DNA from: a virus
Taxonomy: Duplodnaviria; Caudoviricetes
Virus record (IMG/VR): IMGVR_UViG_2907202186_000003
Span: 32,001 to 96,000 of that record
Length of the DNA: 64,000 bases
Reading direction: 5' to 3' (one strand)
Shown here: positions 10,739 through 46,673 of the stretch, in pieces
Position numbering within the stretch: the stretch's first letter is position 1
How the letters are laid out: every line of letters starts with the position of its first letter
Notes under the pieces: model-generated
The model's database searches: none
What the model saw: the letters and a program-made list of their open reading frames with translations, nothing else
Told to the model about the DNA's origin: nothing
Translations under genes and position numbers: made by a program

Positions 10739-10767
10739 ATATTATTATATTTACTTTATTATGTCAA
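10739..10767 (-). promoter_or_regulatory. SigA-type promoter containing the ATAAAGTAAATATA motif
   Basis: TTGACA-17-TAATAT on the minus strand at the head of the 3.5-10.6 kb gene array. Confidence 0.7.
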
Positions 10768-31260: not shown

Positions 31261-32259
31261 TTATGCTTCGGTTTTCTCTACTGCTTTGAGGATATCATTC
31301 AATTCGCCCAACACTACTGACATAATCTGAACGTGCGATTTAGCAAAATCAGTAACCTTCTTGCCTTTTCCAAGATTTTTCTCAATAATTTCATTAACTT
31401 CTTCTGATTTATTAAGACCATACAAAGTTTGCCCAGCTTTAAGAATACCTTTTTTCAATTCATCGAAATCCAAACTTTCAGATTCAAGTGTCTCTTTTTG
31501 CTCTTCATAAGATACTGCCTTAATCCCCTCTGCTTCCTCTTGCTTTTTAATGGCTTCAATAACAGCATTCTCAAGGTTTTCAGCAGTGAACTCCTGAAGA
31601 TATGGATTAATATAATCAAGCTTGCTACGAGCGAAGAAGTCTTTTGTTTCAGCCATATATCCACTCGACTTAATTACATTGCCTTTTTCATCAATGCCAT
31701 TGGAGCGAAGATATACAACGATCTCACTATTGTCAATAACAGGTGCAATGGCACGTTTATCCCCTTTAGGAACAATCTTTCCACGCTTTTCATCAAATGT
31801 TTCATGGGCAATAAATACGACAGTATATCCCGCATTGAGCAGTTTATCGATTTCTTCCCAGTATTCCATCTCATACTCTTTCCAAAGACCATATCCACCG
31901 CGACCTTCAGCAATAGTTTCAACTTCGAATTTATCACACACATATCTAGAACAATAACGAGCAGATGCTTCAACCTCATCGAAGATGATTGTTTGATACA
32001 TCTCTTTTGCTCTTTCTAAATTTGCTTTACTTGTGAGCTGCTTATTGATTTTTTTGAAATCTGCCCAGTTATTAACTGGCAAGAAATTAACTCCAGCGAT
32101 TGCTTTGATACCTTTTTCAAAACCTAAGTAGAATGGTTTTTTCATCCGTGTTGCTTGTTTTGTTTTTCCTAAGTTATTACTTCCGTAAATAGTAATTGTC
32201 TTTCCTTCAAGTCCATAAGAAACAACCGAAACCTGCGGATTAAAAATGTCAAATATCAT
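31261..32259 (-). CDS. AAA_24/Sak4-like NTP-binding protein (YorG-like)
   Basis: YGSNNLGKT, FEKG, IIFDE, FIAH. Confidence 0.82.
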   Translation of the reverse strand: MIFDIFNPQVSVVSYGLEGKTITIYGSNNLGKTKQATRMKKPFYLGFEKGIKAIAGVNFLPVNNWADFKKINKQLTSKANLERAKEMYQTIIFDEVEASARYCSRYVCDKFEVETIAEGRGGYGLWKEYEMEYWEEIDKLLNAGYTVVFIAHETFDEKRGKIVPKGDKRAIAPVIDNSEIVVYLRSNGIDEKGNVIKSSGYMAETKDFFARSKLDYINPYLQEFTAENLENAVIEAIKKQEEAEGIKAVSYEEQKETLESESLDFDELKKGILKAGQTLYGLNKSEEVNEIIEKNLGKGKKVTDFAKSHVQIMSVVLGELNDILKAVEKTEA

Positions 32260-34520: not shown

Positions 34521-34946
34521 TTATGCGTACAAAGCTAATTCATTAAATCTAATAAATTGCCCCCGCTTCTTATGTATATTATAAATGTGCTGCGGATCTT
34601 CGCATCTTAGGTTTTTCAGATTAAAATCGCTTATAGGCTCTTGCAGAAGCCTTTCCAGGGCTACCATTTTGTTTAAATGAAACGCTGTCTCAAATTCCCT
34701 TGCTGATTGATATCCTTCTTCTAAAATCTTTTTCTTTCTAAGTTTAATTAAGTACCGATTTATATATTGAACATCCCTTTCTCTGCAATCATTTATAAAC
34801 TCATCTTGCTCTTGGAGTGTTACGCACAGAAAAGATATAGTTTTCAACAGATTAATTGCCTCGCCGCCGATACCTAAAGTTATCATGATTTCTTCTAGCA
34901 TAGAGCATTCTCCTTTTGAAGTTATGTTTCTGGTGATAGACCTCAC
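34521..34946 (-). CDS. Hypothetical protein, probably SOS-inducible
   Basis: LexA box at 35101-35114 just downstream of a -10 TATAAT (35121-35126, minus strand). Confidence 0.55.
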   Translation of the reverse strand: MRSITRNITSKGECSMLEEIMITLGIGGEAINLLKTISFLCVTLQEQDEFINDCRERDVQYINRYLIKLRKKKILEEGYQSAREFETAFHLNKMVALERLLQEPISDFNLKNLRCEDPQHIYNIHKKRGQFIRFNELALYA

Positions 34947-35100
34947 CTTCTTGTTTGAGATAATAAATCTTAATATAATTATAAATCACAGCTAGAATTA
35001 GGCAATCAAATTACATAACTGATGAATAATTGTTGACATCATAGGTAAGCTGGTAATCTCAGTCATTTTTTGTCGCCAAATGTCGAATCACAACTTATTA

Positions 35101-35114
35101 GGAACATTTGTTCT
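35101..35114. promoter_or_regulatory. LexA box
   Basis: GGAACATTTGTTCT. Confidence 0.75.
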
Positions 35115-35204
35115 GTTATGATTATACTATTGCCAAAAGGTATAATCAATTACTTTTATTTATTATTTATATCTCTATATTTATTTTAATTGGGTGAAGT
35201 GATA

Positions 35205-35576
35205 CTACTTTTGTCGTAACAAAAGAATACACTTCTTCACTTGCTCCAGTCTTGATGCAGCTATTGTAATAAAACGGCTTTTCATCTCATCTATATAGAG
35301 ATACATATTTTTCTCATCTATAGCTTTAACCTTATTCAAATTCGCCATTGCACCTCTATCGGTTCTAACAAACCCGTCTATCTTTTCAAACAGTTTAAGA
35401 GTATGTTCGACTCCATTTGCATCTATGTATTCACCATCTAAGGTCTGAAAAACAAAAATAGATTTTCCTGGTTTACCTTCAGAGTAACCTCCAACAATAT
35501 CGTTGACACTGAGCCAAATTGCTTCTTCTGAAACCTTTTTTCCTTCTCTTTTCACTACTCTGATTTCCTTGCTCAC
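35205..35576 (-). CDS. Stand-alone LytTR DNA-binding protein
   Basis: GFVRTDRGAMANLNKV LytTR motif, no receiver domain; GTG start after GGGGG. Confidence 0.82.
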   Translation of the reverse strand: MSKEIRVVKREGKKVSEEAIWLSVNDIVGGYSEGKPGKSIFVFQTLDGEYIDANGVEHTLKLFEKIDGFVRTDRGAMANLNKVKAIDEKNMYLYIDEMKSRFITIAASRLEQVKKCILLLRQK

Positions 35577-35600
35577 TTTTGTTGCCCCCAATTTAACATT

Positions 35601-35639
35601 TACTTGCGTCTATTTTCTTTTGGTTAAAAGACGCAAGTA
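35601..35639. terminator. Hairpin between agrD and the LytTR gene
   Basis: TACTTGCGTC...GACGCAAGTA. Confidence 0.55.
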
Positions 35640-35653
35640 CATATTATTTTGTT

Positions 35654-35779
35654 TTATTTAAGTTCTTCTGGCACTTCTTCGGTGCCCAGAATTGTCCAAC
35701 TTGCGGTACTTGTAACAGTTACCGCAATAGCGGAAAGAATTGTTCCAAACATCAGTGCCAGTTTATTCATCTTTTGCAT
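35654..35779 (-). CDS. agrD: AgrD-type cyclic lactone autoinducer propeptide (41 aa, not in the ORF track)
   Basis: RBS AAGGAGGTG; MQKMNKLALMFGTILSAIAVTVTSTASWTILGTEEVPEELK; SWTIL-GTEEVPEEL aligns with staphylococcal CDFIM-DEVEVPKEL. Confidence 0.88.
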   Translation of the reverse strand: MQKMNKLALMFGTILSAIAVTVTSTASWTILGTEEVPEELK

Positions 35780-36317
35780 TTCTCATCACCTCCTTTTCAG
35801 AATATACAATTCTAATTAGGGAAAGCGACTGAAGAAAAAAGGCCAGTGTTAAGATGTTGCTGTGTACAATGAAATTTCCTGCAATAATCATTAATGAAAC
35901 TATCTTTAGATATATAAAATTCTCTTCTTTTATTCTAGTTTGCTTCTTAATATTTGAAGGAGCAAATATCACTACAAGAACAAGACTTGCAATATCTATA
36001 ATTGTTTTGATGTTTTGTATTAACGGGCTCACCATTACGATTGTATACACTAGAACAACTGAAACAACTATGCAGACTTCAGCTGATTTAATATGATATC
36101 CGCCAGAAAACATTCTAAGTATGCTAAACCCTAATAATGCAATCATTACTTCTGGAAATATTCGCAATAACATTGAACTAACAATTAAAACTAATATCGG
36201 TGTAATATTAGATATTAGAAACTTAATTGAATATCTAACTATAGACACTGATGGCAATTCATTTGGATATCTCTTTTTTAGATAAACACTCAGTTTGTCG
36301 CTTATATCATTAATCAA
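35763..36317 (-). CDS. agrB: AgrB peptide-processing membrane protease
   Basis: LRMFSGGYH...C catalytic motif, FAP, multi-TM. Confidence 0.92.
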   Translation of the reverse strand: MINDISDKLSVYLKKRYPNELPSVSIVRYSIKFLISNITPILVLIVSSMLLRIFPEVMIALLGFSILRMFSGGYHIKSAEVCIVVSVVLVYTIVMVSPLIQNIKTIIDIASLVLVVIFAPSNIKKQTRIKEENFIYLKIVSLMIIAGNFIVHSNILTLAFFLQSLSLIRIVYSEKEVMRNAKDE

Positions 36318-36960
36318 TTTCGCCCCTCATTTCTTTTTTGACTTCCATAAACAATAGATTAATTAAACAAATTAACCAAAACAACAATCCAGTGTAAATG
36401 TTATCTATCGATGAAGCTTTACTAATTACGAAAATTCCCAGTATCGTTGCAATAAATATCAGCATATTGGGTCGACTTGGCTTAAATTTAAATGAATAGG
36501 AATAGGGTAGATTAGTCATCCAGATTCTTTTCTTTCTCAGAAATAAACTTAATGCAATCGTCCCAATATCACCAATCACTTGTACAGGATATTTTATGTA
36601 ATCATTACTTTTGAGTTCATTAAGATTAATATTTAACGCTAGACATGAAACTGAAATAACTAAACCCAATATTAATGTTTGTGCTAAAAATCCTAATCCA
36701 GCAATTCTAAAGGAAGAAAACAGCGAAATCCTAAAAAAGAACAGTAAGGCCGCCATAAATATTATTAGGTTTAATAGAGGTGAGAGATTGGATAATATAA
36801 TGTTTTCTGAATAAAAGTATGTTCCAATTGATATTACTATATTCGTTATTATAATTTCTTTCCAATAATCAACTATCTTTATTCTAAAGAAGCCAAAAGC
36901 AAAGAAGAAAATTGCCATTCCATCGATCATCGAAAAGAGTATGTATACTAGCGCATTCAT
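36310..36960 (-). CDS. Polytopic membrane protein, AgrC-sensor-like but lacking a kinase domain
   Basis: About 7 TM helices, first gene of the agr operon, no H-box or HATPase domain. Confidence 0.65.
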   Translation of the reverse strand: MNALVYILFSMIDGMAIFFFAFGFFRIKIVDYWKEIIITNIVISIGTYFYSENIILSNLSPLLNLIIFMAALLFFFRISLFSSFRIAGLGFLAQTLILGLVISVSCLALNINLNELKSNDYIKYPVQVIGDIGTIALSLFLRKKRIWMTNLPYSYSFKFKPSRPNMLIFIATILGIFVISKASSIDNIYTGLLFWLICLINLLFMEVKKEMRGEID

Positions 36961-36974
36961 TGTTTACCCACCTT

Positions 36975-37032
36975 TAAAGTAAATATATTAATAACTTGTT
37001 TATAATATATCATGGGCTATTTTTACTGTCAA
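36975..37032 (-). promoter_or_regulatory. agr operon promoter with downstream phage operator-like motif
   Basis: TTGACA(37032-37027)-17-TATATT; TAAAGTAAATATA at 36975-36987. Confidence 0.6.
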
Positions 37033-37068
37033 TATATAAAACAAAAAAAGATAGAATAAGTTATGCAC

Positions 37069-38076
37069 TTATTCTATCTCGTAAACTTTTTTTATTGTTT
37101 CTTCATTGAGAAAATCCTTCGTGTACCTACTATATGCATAAAACTCATCCGCATGTGTTTGTTTTCCAATATTATAGTACTCACAAATGGTTATTATCTC
37201 ATCTCTTCCGAGTGAGCCTTTGGATTCATATAATTCTTTTGCCATATATAACATTCCAGAATTTCTAATATTGATTGCGCTGAGATGTTTTAGCCCTTTC
37301 CATACACCAATATTCTTTAATCTTCTCAATACCAGATGCTTATCTGCTTTCTCGTTTGCTGTAGCCCTACGCTTAACGGATCTAATAATATATGGGCTAT
37401 CAGCTAACTCCACTACAGGACTTTTAGCGGTACTATGTCCATTGTCTTGACTATAGTCTTTTTGCTCTGCAGCTCTTATTAATAATGCCATCAGATGTTC
37501 AGATATTTTAATAGTTCTTTTCTCTATTTCACCATTTTTCAATTCATTCTTAAGCGTAGCTGTACTCTCGTCAATATTCAAATCATTAATTGTTAAGTTT
37601 AATAATTCGCTATACTCTCTTCCGAATATTCCCTCAAATAAAGCTAAAGGGATAACTGAATCTTGCCAATTCTCTAAATCACCAATTATATCTTTTAGTT
37701 CTTCATTAGTAATCAATAATTTATTAGTCTTATCTACAAATTTCAAATAAAAACCCGAACTTCCCATGATATCTAGAGGATTTAAATTATCATCTCTGAG
37801 ATCCTGGCTTATAGCCCATCTAATGTAGTTTTGAATAATTGATCCACTGCCATTGGCAGATTGCAATGTTTTAGGAGCAAGATAACTCAATAGATCTTCT
37901 ATTTCAAACAAACTAAAGTTATACAAATCCTTACCTAGTCTTTCTTCAAGCTTGCTGGCTCTTTTGAGTACACGTAGGTATGTTGTATACGTGTTTTCAT
38001 TAAGTCCTTTTAAGAACCTTGTTTTTTGTTCTTCGTTATAGAGATAATCATTGTAAACTACATTAGACAAATCCAC
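37069..38076 (-). CDS. mrpR: Integrase-fold master repressor (SPbeta YopR/MrpR-like)
   Basis: LYNEEQKTRFL N-terminus, SAM-like domain, degenerate catalytic motifs (EGIFGREYSEL, NIRNSG); follows the yopQ-like gene. Confidence 0.78.
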   Translation of the reverse strand: MDLSNVVYNDYLYNEEQKTRFLKGLNENTYTTYLRVLKRASKLEERLGKDLYNFSLFEIEDLLSYLAPKTLQSANGSGSIIQNYIRWAISQDLRDDNLNPLDIMGSSGFYLKFVDKTNKLLITNEELKDIIGDLENWQDSVIPLALFEGIFGREYSELLNLTINDLNIDESTATLKNELKNGEIEKRTIKISEHLMALLIRAAEQKDYSQDNGHSTAKSPVVELADSPYIIRSVKRRATANEKADKHLVLRRLKNIGVWKGLKHLSAINIRNSGMLYMAKELYESKGSLGRDEIITICEYYNIGKQTHADEFYAYSRYTKDFLNEETIKKVYEIE

Positions 38077-38105: not shown

Positions 38106-39422
38106 CTAATTTCTAAAGTAATTAATTACTTGATTTCTAACTCGATTTGAATTAATTCCACTTTTGTTATTTAAAAGCTCAATCAATTTGCTATCGTTAA
38201 AATCAACTAGCTTCTTTAGATTTTTTATCTCTGACGTATCTGTGCTAGTGTCTTTAAAGTTCTTCGCTATTTGAATATAACCTAAAAACATTAAAGGATG
38301 GTTAATATAAGATTTTCGATGCGGTTTTGGATTATTAATAAACTCATCATTGAAGTTACCAGTTAAATAATTAAAGAATTCAGTTAAATAATTAGCTACT
38401 TCTTTATATTCTAAAAAATTATTTGGTGAGAAAACTTTTTCAATTCCATACGCCATTATATCAAAAGTAGTCAATTGTCCAGCAATTTCACTAATATTAG
38501 CAGCTGAAGCAATTTTGTTACCTTTCAATTCTGATTTTTGTTGTAAATCTCTTACTACAGCATCTGACCAATTTTCTGATTTAAGTTCACGCAATCTCTG
38601 CTTTTTAACAACATTAATTGTATTTATCTGTCCAAAGTACTTCTTTGCGATATCAGTATCATATGACCTTATAGATAGAAGCAGTTCAAGATCTAAGTCA
38701 GGGTTAATTGCAAGTGCTTTTACAGCGCCCTGGAGACGATGAAATCCATCAAGAATAGAAACTGTTGCTCCATCATTTATCGTTAGCAATTTATTCTTTT
38801 CGTCATAGCTGAGCGGTTCAACTTCATTAGAGTAGACATTTATTGTAATCATATCAGGTAAATAAGATTGTTCTAGCATGTTCTTTGCTATATCATCAAC
38901 GCTTTTCTTGTTTACGTCAGGAACTGGTACAACGCCATTCTTCCCCATCTTATATTTAGCACTACGTTGAGTTTCATAATCATATACGATAAGCTTAGCA
39001 TGAAACATCTCTACAAGTAATTTTATACTTACTTTAGTTAAAAATGTTTGATGATCTATACTCACTACTTCCTCTAAATCTAGTGGTAAATTAAGTGACT
39101 TTCGCACAGAATTATCTCTTACTTTTTCTTTAGATTTTTCTAGTTCCGTTTCAGAAACATATTCTTGTGTAATTATTCTTTTGTCCTCAGTTACTTTATA
39201 GACTGCATCAGAAAGCACGATAAGTAAGTTTAAATCAATGTCAGATAATGAATTATTTCCTCTCGCAACATCATTAAAAAAACCAAGATTAATTCCTTGC
39301 TGATCGAGAGAATTATTTATCTTCGCGGCGAATTTCGTACTATGTTTATTCTCATCAATAACATCTCTGAGTTGAGCTTCAAGTTCCTCTCTGTCTCGTT
39401 TCAAATGCTCACACCTCTCCAC
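38106..39422 (-). CDS. DndB/DGQHR (ParB-like) protein, SPbeta YopQ-like
   Basis: YETQR, ILDGFHRL, FGQIN. Confidence 0.78.
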   Translation of the reverse strand: MERCEHLKRDREELEAQLRDVIDENKHSTKFAAKINNSLDQQGINLGFFNDVARGNNSLSDIDLNLLIVLSDAVYKVTEDKRIITQEYVSETELEKSKEKVRDNSVRKSLNLPLDLEEVVSIDHQTFLTKVSIKLLVEMFHAKLIVYDYETQRSAKYKMGKNGVVPVPDVNKKSVDDIAKNMLEQSYLPDMITINVYSNEVEPLSYDEKNKLLTINDGATVSILDGFHRLQGAVKALAINPDLDLELLLSIRSYDTDIAKKYFGQINTINVVKKQRLRELKSENWSDAVVRDLQQKSELKGNKIASAANISEIAGQLTTFDIMAYGIEKVFSPNNFLEYKEVANYLTEFFNYLTGNFNDEFINNPKPHRKSYINHPLMFLGYIQIAKNFKDTSTDTSEIKNLKKLVDFNDSKLIELLNNKSGINSNRVRNQVINYFRN

Positions 39423-46337: not shown

Positions 46338-46589
46338 CTAGTCCCTTGGATAGTTAACTTCCATTATGTCCATAAATGGCACCTTAGTGATAACACCATC
46401 TTTCTTGATATGCACCTTTCCCGTCCGAGAGTCCATTTGATCGATTTGCCCCCTAACAGACTCTTCCCAACCCCACACGGTTAATACAATTTCTGATTCC
46501 TCTTGGTAGGCTTCGGTGAGTTGATTTCCTAACTCCTCAAGTACAAACTCATCTCTTGTTGGTCTCTTTGCTACCTTAGATTTTGCCAT
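46338..46589 (-). CDS. Second YolD-like protein
   Basis: RPTRDEFVLEEL...VRGQI...VPFMDI; start after GGAGGG. Confidence 0.7.
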   Translation of the reverse strand: MAKSKVAKRPTRDEFVLEELGNQLTEAYQEESEIVLTVWGWEESVRGQIDQMDSRTGKVHIKKDGVITKVPFMDIMEVNYPRD

Positions 46590-46673
46590 CATTAATGCCC
46601 TCCTAGCTGTCGAATTCAGTACGCAAGAGTTGAAATGGCGACCTAAACGTTTCTGTTTGATCGCCAAGAAAAT

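Follow-up and report, generated by a model that had tools for sequence, protein, structure and literature searches.

The window analysed here is a 64,000-nucleotide stretch of viral DNA (Duplodnaviria; Caudoviricetes), positions 32,001 to 96,000 of IMG/VR record IMGVR_UViG_2907202186_000003, which corresponds to C11:196723-260722 in the genome of a Paenibacillus-family bacterium and belongs to a large SPbeta-like prophage. Its minus strand carries, from position 37032 to 35205, a single transcription unit of four co-oriented genes encoding a kinase-less protein with several transmembrane helices, the peptidase/cyclase AgrB, an AgrD precursor peptide, and a stand-alone LytTR-type DNA-binding protein, and this unit directly follows the gene of an MrpR-type master repressor (Table 1). 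An earlier note, made from the sequence alone, had described this gene set as a phage-encoded Agr-type signalling operon; its coordinates and protein families could be confirmed, and the phage context it assumed is borne out by replication genes in the window and by the same gene order in related prophages and viral contigs.

Table 1. Coordinates of the agr-type operon and the features surrounding it, in window positions.
Feature	Position	Strand	Characteristics
YopQ-like DndB-domain protein, upstream of mrpR	38106..39422	-	PF14072; synteny in relatives
MrpR-type master repressor, inactive tyrosine-recombinase fold	37069..38076	-	PF22822 99.6 bits, PF22823 61.9 bits
Intrinsic terminator of the mrpR-like gene	37048..37080	-	14-bp stem followed by T-run
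Predicted agr operon promoter	37004..37032	-	TTGACA, 17-nt spacer, TG-n-TATATT (extended -10)
5' leader with conserved A/T-rich element, candidate operator	36961..37003	-	kept between loci with proteins only about 40% identical
Membrane protein, 216 aa, proposed peptide receptor and LytTR controller	36310..36960	-	seven long helices (AlphaFold2)
AgrB peptidase/cyclase	35763..36317	-	PF04647, 77.3 bits (cut-off 23)
AgrD precursor, 41 aa	35654..35779	-	TIGR04223, 22.9 bits (cut-off 19)
RNA hairpin between agrD and LytTR gene	35594..35651	-	-21.5 kcal/mol, z -5.3, without good T-run
Stand-alone LytTR DNA-binding protein, 128-aa open reading frame	35205..35591	-	PF04397, 25.2 bits (cut-off 22.6)
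Region directly 3' of the operon	35101..35188	-	motif copy 35176-35188, promoter 35149..35121, LexA-type box 35101-35114

The four encoded proteins

The family matches of AgrB, AgrD, LytTR, and MrpR all pass the curated cut-offs. The first three genes of the operon overlap one another, the agrB start overlapping the stop codon of the membrane-protein gene and the agrD start overlapping the end of agrB, and 62 nt separate agrD from the LytTR open reading frame (ORF). The R..GG.H..C catalytic motif of AgrB (R68, G72, G73, H75, and C82) is invariant in 11 aligned homologues. AgrD reads T-S-T-A / S-W-T-I-L / G-T-E-E-V-P-E-E-L-K, with a predicted ring from Ser27 to Leu31 (Ser27-Trp-Thr-Ile-Leu31) that ends six residues before the conserved Pro37, which is the canonical ring-to-Pro spacing. 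The serine ring SWTIL, which the earlier note had already predicted, is backed by the invariant A-S-W in 11 related phage AgrDs, in which the E-x-V-P-x-E tail is constant as well, and in which ring positions 3-5 vary (SWTIL, SWTIV, SWTLI, SWTLV, SWTVI, and SWALF).

The fourth gene probably starts at the GTG at 35576, yielding a product of 123 aa, since a GGGGG ribosome-binding site lies 8 nt before this codon and the N-termini of the relatives align there. Pfam and the structural model find a LytTR domain only, with no receiver domain. The AlphaFold2 (AF2) model of this protein has a pLDDT (predicted local distance difference test) of 87, and its best Foldseek matches are the AgrA LytTR domain (3bs1/4g4k), followed by ComE and 3d6w (E 4e-5 to 4e-4, prob 1.0), suggesting that it folds like the DNA-binding domain of AgrA. 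In line with the earlier note, neither a kinase nor a receiver domain was found in the operon with Pfam and NCBIfam; PF14501 has 16 matches in the genome and none in the window, the closest being located on contig C11 at about 659 kb. The PADLOC defence models gave no match among the cassette proteins.

Two further stand-alone LytTR proteins are encoded by the same genome. One is located within the phage (46674..47033, minus strand; 119 aa, PF04397 38 bits), lacks a membrane partner, and is distantly paralogous to the agr-linked LytTR (hhalign 93%); it is followed by a YolD-like 109-aa ORF (46338..46667, minus strand) and has its own promoter at about 47139, bearing the repeated motif described below. 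The other is chromosomal, at C11:691690.

The membrane protein has no Pfam or NCBIfam match. Its AF2 model (pLDDT 78) has a basic loop at residues 143-165 among the seven long helices. The ESM Atlas model of the protein aligns with the N-terminal membrane domains of PF14501/GHKL (HATPase_c_5, AgrC-type) kinases with TM-scores of 0.71, 0.65, and 0.60, compared with 0.32-0.38 for unrelated rows, and the alignments cover 171-204 residues within residues 1-213 of the protein. An Atlas shape search with our own AF2 model returned TM-scores of at most 0.41, and VIA-align wide gave as its best result a Z of 7.2 to Pex3, which represents helical-bundle noise. The Atlas comparison suggests an AgrC-sensor-like fold without kinase domain; combined with a LytTR-only regulator, such a sensor-only protein would mean that both halves of a two-component system are reduced to their input and output domains. 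The listed sequence homologues of the membrane protein measure 73-247 aa and none is of kinase length, and no fused forms longer than 404 aa were found in the family, which is weak evidence. A possible origin of the membrane protein as an AgrB paralogue was rejected, as the match in a small-database BLAST search was weak and compositional, and the hhalign probability was 0.3%.

Membrane topology was assigned by us on basis of the positive-inside rule. Across 156 family members, conservation is lowest in the three predicted outer loops (1.0-1.1 bits, versus 1.6-1.9 bits for the inner loops). Among phage cassette pairs with about 65-67% overall identity, the outer loops are 50% identical in a pair that shares the same AgrD ring and 20-30% identical in pairs with different rings, whereas the inner loops of the compared phage membrane proteins are 75-80% identical. 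Outer-loop identity thus appears to track the AgrD ring, as one would expect if the protein were a ligand-specific receptor whose cytoplasmic partner stays constant.

Transcription signals, repressor neighbourhood and distribution

The hairpin and T-run at the end of mrpR, which have an equivalent in all related loci, set this gene apart from the agr operon. Directly after this terminator the predicted agr operon promoter starts, which has 11 of 12 consensus matches with the TG present, and which by its sequence is taken to be a single strong sigma-A promoter for the four genes; its TTGAC and TG.TA elements are invariant across 7 aligned loci. Like the promoter and the leader element, the G+C-rich hairpin between agrD and the LytTR gene is conserved between loci: it is present in all eight loci compared (this one and 7 others) at -15 to -25 kcal/mol, with poor T-runs and a stem sequence that is unlike in each locus. 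The hairpin is likely a leaky terminator or attenuator, and its retention with poor T-runs suggests attenuated read-through and a low dose of LytTR relative to the membrane protein, which would be in keeping with a sequestration design. LytTR activator sites near the operon were rejected as a candidate feature, as 9-bp repeats with 21-bp spacing were not found there.

The MrpR gene is the sole copy in the genome, and it encodes a core-binding and an inactive catalytic domain and is preceded by the gene of a YopQ-like DndB protein, as in the lysogeny module of SPbeta-like phages. The earlier note had reported that the operon promoter carries the same motif as the phage early promoters. The exact motif TAAAGTAAATATA is indeed present, at 36975-36987, but it is inverted (plus strand) and falls outside the promoter core, within the stretch of the leader that separates the -10 box from the ribosome-binding site. 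Allowing up to 2 mismatches, 25 copies of TAAAGTAAATATA were found versus 9.4 expected, and among those with at most 1 mismatch every copy is on the minus strand but for the inverted one in the agr operon. The motif overlaps the -10 box in two exact copies, and in others an extended -10 box follows 20-45 nt downstream of it; because this distance varies, the motif probably represents a repressor operator and not a LytTR activator site, and the copy in the agr leader resembles an operator more than a signature of early promoters. An extended element, TAAARTAAATATA-N3-ATATAAA, occurs at many minus-strand promoters at varying distance to the -10 box (for example at 10746, 22130, 35176, 47139, 51368, 56663, 58763, 60141, and 60796, all on the minus strand). 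The extended TAAARTAAATATA element is a candidate analogue of a repeated 15-bp element that MrpR binds in SPbeta at about 10 promoters, that of aimR among them (PMC10516654). From the operator-like placement of the motif, the MrpR sites of SPbeta, and the conserved leader, it is a reasonable prediction that MrpR represses the agr operon in lysogens.

The signals directly 3' of the operon precede a gene of 141 aa (34946..34521), and their LexA-type box is conserved in all related loci. The intervening region (34947..35204) and its equivalents in all related prophages contain a promoter and a LexA-type box, GAAC-N4-GTTC, ahead of a gene of 126-141 aa, as well as a TTCGACA-N5-CGACA repeat and inverted TGTCAA elements.

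At least 10 related Paenibacillus prophages or viral contigs have the cassette behind mrpR, and at least 10 independent loci retain its gene order with proteins that are 37-78% identical, a range that also holds for the membrane protein alone across the related loci; together with the family matches, this conservation goes beyond chance. The recurrent order is PemK, a helix-turn-helix (HTH) gene, YopQ, MrpR, membrane protein, AgrB, AgrD, and LytTR, and a 126-aa gene with an SOS box and replication genes come next wherever the downstream flank was retrieved. This context was encountered in Paenibacillus sp. XY044, P. illinoisensis, P. barcinonensis, and other genomes, and in three IMG/VR viral contigs of 128-153 kb. 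Moreover, the four genes occur together in three unrelated phage groups, always in the lysogeny region. The region's DNA had no match among 50,697 phage records, nor had the membrane protein when searched by tblastn in the same collection.

A profile search with the membrane-protein family yielded 290 cluster representatives, and of the 301 Paenibacillaceae genomes sampled, 103 encode at least one member of the family and often 2-3. AgrB adjoins the membrane protein in all 21 inspected loci, and a downstream LytTR gene could be detected in 18 of these; one cassette locus, in a metagenome-assembled genome, adjoins cellulase genes. Among the 30 MrpR loci in the 301-genome sample, 4 have the cassette directly downstream, and in one relative mrpR is directly followed by the SOS-boxed gene, without cassette. 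For 12 of the MrpR loci without cassette, no alternative peptide-receptor module was recognised in the flanking genes, which include a transposase, an SLT lysozyme, GmrSD, a YonO-like polymerase, a methyl-accepting chemotaxis protein, and nitric oxide (NO) synthase. Two MrpR homologues (L053 and L054; G034:C11 and G249:C1) have genes for chemotaxis receptors, NO synthase, and dehydrogenases as neighbours, and seem to be copies of the repressor fold that belong to the chromosome and not to a phage. In another lineage a different MrpR is directly followed by a rearranged kinase-less cassette (L048:3847-5823; G051:C1) that encodes AgrB, a 222-aa membrane protein (hhalign 59% to the family), a Cys-containing peptide of 37 aa, and a 180-aa protein.

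The absence of AimR-like genes, noted earlier for the window, extends to the whole 99.99%-complete genome, in which model NF038310 found no match while a Bacillus subtilis control was positive. The proposal that the cassette replaces arbitrium is not sustained: in the 301 Paenibacillaceae genomes the same model matched HTH N-termini only, none past the cut-off, and as no true AimR was found in the family genomes, replacement cannot be inferred. Moreover, the cassette accompanies few of the MrpR loci and is missing in one relative.

Interpretation and alternative explanations

With moderate confidence, the operon is read as a phage-borne and complete Agr-type peptide signalling unit that operates without phosphorelay, in which the membrane sensor controls LytTR directly. 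AgrB would cut AgrD after Leu31 and close a five-residue lactone on Ser27, cyclo(SWTIL), and a second cut after the invariant Ala26 would release a tail-less lactone with a calculated monoisotopic mass of 600.33 Da. A pentapeptide of this kind has been seen in Clostridium thermocellum by liquid chromatography-mass spectrometry, where a tail-less Ser-lactone is derived from AgrD after an Ala-Ser cut (PMC5322536). The seven-helix membrane protein, with the sensor fold of AgrC minus the DHp and ATPase domains, would bind the peptide on its variable outer loops, and its conserved cytoplasmic loops would hold or release the receiver-less LytTR, in a step resembling that of HdrM and BrsM, the membrane inhibitors of LytTR Regulatory Systems. 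Freed LytTR would then alter transcription from promoters of the phage and possibly the host. Control at the membrane is plausible in view of the modelled AgrC-sensor-like fold, the conserved inner and variable outer loops, and the precedent of the LytTR Regulatory Systems.

Several observations weigh against this interpretation. The AgrC-like fold of the membrane protein comes from predicted models alone, neither sequence nor Foldseek searches of the PDB gave a usable match, and the protein has no sequence similarity to the AgrC of the host; the relation between AgrD rings and outer loops derives from about 10 related sequences only. Contact between the membrane protein and LytTR is proposed by analogy, and the second phage LytTR, lacking a membrane partner, raises the possibility that such proteins may act without sequestration. 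The promoter looks constitutive from its sequence, and no direct repeats of the LytTR auto-activation type are present in 36950-37120, upstream of the -35 box. In addition, the gene order is the reverse of that in LytTR Regulatory Systems, in which the regulator gene leads and for which no signal is known; no sequencing runs containing the region are listed, so that expression evidence points neither way; and related SPbeta-like prophages without the cassette would fit an accessory (moron) role and a decision role alike.

The likeliest, more speculative use of such a unit would be a density-dependent tuning of the lysis-lysogeny or induction decision, which is suggested by the operator-like motif in the leader and by the location of the cassette, with the master repressor on one side and the SOS-boxed early region on the other. 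That the cassette is the phage's own lysis-lysogeny communication system is nevertheless considered doubtful. Equally tentative is the farther-reaching proposal of phosphorelay-free Agr as the arbitrium equivalent of a lineage of Paenibacillus SPbeta-like phages, in which a seven-helix, sensor-only receptor would gate LytTR directly, a lactone of the cyclo(SWTIL) type would be released by infected or induced cells, MrpR would silence the operon in stable lysogens, the peptide level would set lysis-lysogeny or induction, and the ring variants (SWTIL, SWTLI, SWTVI, SWALF, and others) would serve as private dialects.

A possible alternative, though one we consider improbable, is that the cassette is lysogenic-conversion cargo, i.e., a moron acquired from a Paenibacillaceae chromosome that provides lysogens with a private quorum channel or interferes with host AgrC/AgrA, without a role in phage decisions. 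The mostly chromosomal occurrence of the cassette in about a third of the sampled genomes, including the locus beside cellulase genes, the small share of MrpR loci that carry it, and the relative lacking it at the same junction would all suit such cargo, as would the bracketing of the cassette by a terminator and its own strong promoter, which is usual for morons; moreover, the ring of the host AgrD, CWWIA, shares with the phage ring the Trp at position 2 and the Ile at position 4, which makes cross-talk conceivable. Cargo is less readily reconciled with recurrence of the cassette in the lysogeny-control region of three unrelated phage groups, with the rearranged Agr cassette at the same post-mrpR position in another lineage, and with a leader that contains a conserved, phage-specific operator-like element, and the only about 22% identity between phage and host AgrB indicates that capture was not recent.

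It is unlikely that the membrane protein is instead a maturation or export helper, or an immunity protein against a growth-inhibiting cyclic peptide, with LytTR acting as an ordinary free transcription factor. Translational coupling joins the membrane-protein gene with agrB and agrD, while the LytTR gene is set apart by the hairpin; maturation of the autoinducing peptide of Staphylococcus aureus requires a second membrane protease; and the second phage LytTR does without a membrane partner. All of this would agree with such a reading. The AgrD lactone of C. thermocellum inhibits growth (PMC5322536), which would be in keeping with an immunity function. On the other hand, the same system provides precedent for an Ala-Ser junction cut by signal peptidase without a helper (PMC5322536), the membrane-protein family has no protease-like motifs or Pfam match, and its modelled resemblance to the sensor domains of AgrC-type kinases, together with variable outer and conserved inner loops, would better suit a receptor with a cytoplasmic partner. 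Finally, it is highly improbable that the operon is a decaying remnant of a canonical agrBDCA system that lost its kinase and receiver parts, and with these its signalling: both two-component proteins are cut down to input and output domains, but all ORFs are intact, many phages and a third of the family genomes retain the architecture, at 37-78% identity, and catalytic residues, promoter, and hairpin are conserved.

The phage cassette is a member of a widespread, uncharacterised Agr architecture without phosphorelay, whose occurrence in phages was partly noted in 2014. The novelty claimed for it earlier was therefore overstated, as the membrane-protein family is not phage-specific and phage cassettes had been reported (PMC3901668). 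No published functional study of the kinase-less AgrB/AgrD/LytTR architecture was found in the literature, and the elements that are new here are the modelled AgrC-sensor-like fold and AgrA-like LytTR fold, the recurrence after mrpR, the distant phage versions, and the occurrence throughout the Paenibacillaceae. If the direct control of LytTR by a membrane sensor is true, it would constitute a third wiring of Agr-type sensing, without kinase or phosphotransfer, encountered in about a third of the sampled Paenibacillaceae genomes and in several phage groups. A role at the lysis-lysogeny switch, if true, would add a second, unrelated class of phage-encoded peptide communication, with a cyclic, membrane-sensed signal. 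The system is compact, with one 1.8-kb operon, one predicted 600-Da peptide, and natural ring variants for specificity.

Comparison with known systems

The closest counterparts among described phages are the cassettes of the Brevibacillus phages Abouo and Davies and the Paenibacillus larvae phages Harrison and Paisley, which have the same kinase-less order of membrane protein (about 220 aa), AgrB, peptide (about 42 aa), and LytTR (about 120 aa). In 2014 Hargreaves et al. drew attention to the kinase-less agr cassettes of Abouo, Davies, and Emery, but not to the LytTR gene (PMC3901668). The carriers are phages of 44-58 kb (44-46 kb for Abouo, Davies, Harrison, and Paisley; 58.6 kb for Emery), in which the cassette is located in the lysogeny region beside integrase or repressor genes, whereas here it adjoins MrpR. 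Their proteins are 22-31% identical to those of this cassette (24-25% for the membrane proteins, and 22% over full length for the LytTRs). Another difference is that their AgrD-like peptides have no Ser or Cys at the canonical ring position: Abouo gp46 (L004:4019-4147) and Harrison gp40 (L005:4013-4141) keep the GS..P.ELK tail, but neither has a Cys or Ser at the position five residues ahead of the predicted cut, and these products may be linear or cyclised differently. The RefSeq "peptidase" genes of Abouo (L004:4151-4519) and Harrison (L005:4148-4504) encode LytTR domains (PF04397, 29 bits), and their annotation can be corrected accordingly.

With canonical agrBDCA, as found in S. aureus and at the host locus, the cassette shares the AgrB His and Cys residues, the five-residue AgrD ring, the conserved Pro tail, a LytTR output domain, and a membrane sensor predicted to have an AgrC-like fold. 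It differs in having neither the DHp/ATPase domains of the AgrC kinase nor the receiver domain of AgrA, which makes phosphotransfer impossible, and in its gene order and predicted Ser lactone in place of a Cys thiolactone. The canonical locus of the host (C11: about 999.3-1002.3 kb; L003:6353-9303), near the contig end and beside tRNA genes, encodes the only other AgrB of this genome, which is about 22% identical to phage AgrB, and a 49-aa AgrD with the ring CWWIA, with a LytTR response regulator (249 aa) and a kinase (420 aa) encoded divergently. A recent copying of this locus was rejected as the source of the cassette, as similarity to host AgrC, AgrA, and AgrB is none or marginal.

LytTR Regulatory Systems, such as HdrRM and BrsRM of Streptococcus mutans, consist of a receiver-less LytTR and a membrane protein for which phosphorylation-independent signalling has been proposed (PMC6193735). 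Co-transcription of a receiver-less LytTR with a membrane protein is shared with these systems, whereas the built-in AgrBD peptide pathway, the seven-helix membrane protein, and the lack of auto-activation repeats distinguish the cassette from them. The agr3 genes of the Clostridioides difficile phage phiCDHM1 (agrC-agrB-agrD) likewise place AgrB and AgrD in a temperate phage, but in phiCDHM1 the AgrC kinase is complete and a LytTR is missing, whereas this cassette combines a kinase-less sensor with a LytTR protein. The arbitrium system of the SPbeta group (AimR-AimP-AimX) is also a peptide module that adjoins the yopQ/mrpR lysogeny operon, and the cassette is possibly controlled by MrpR, like the aimR promoter in SPbeta (PMC10516654). 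Homology between the two is absent: arbitrium employs a linear hexapeptide that is imported to a cytoplasmic TPR receptor, whereas the cassette is predicted to employ a cyclic peptide sensed at the membrane, and it is located downstream of the repressor operon, where the arbitrium module is upstream.

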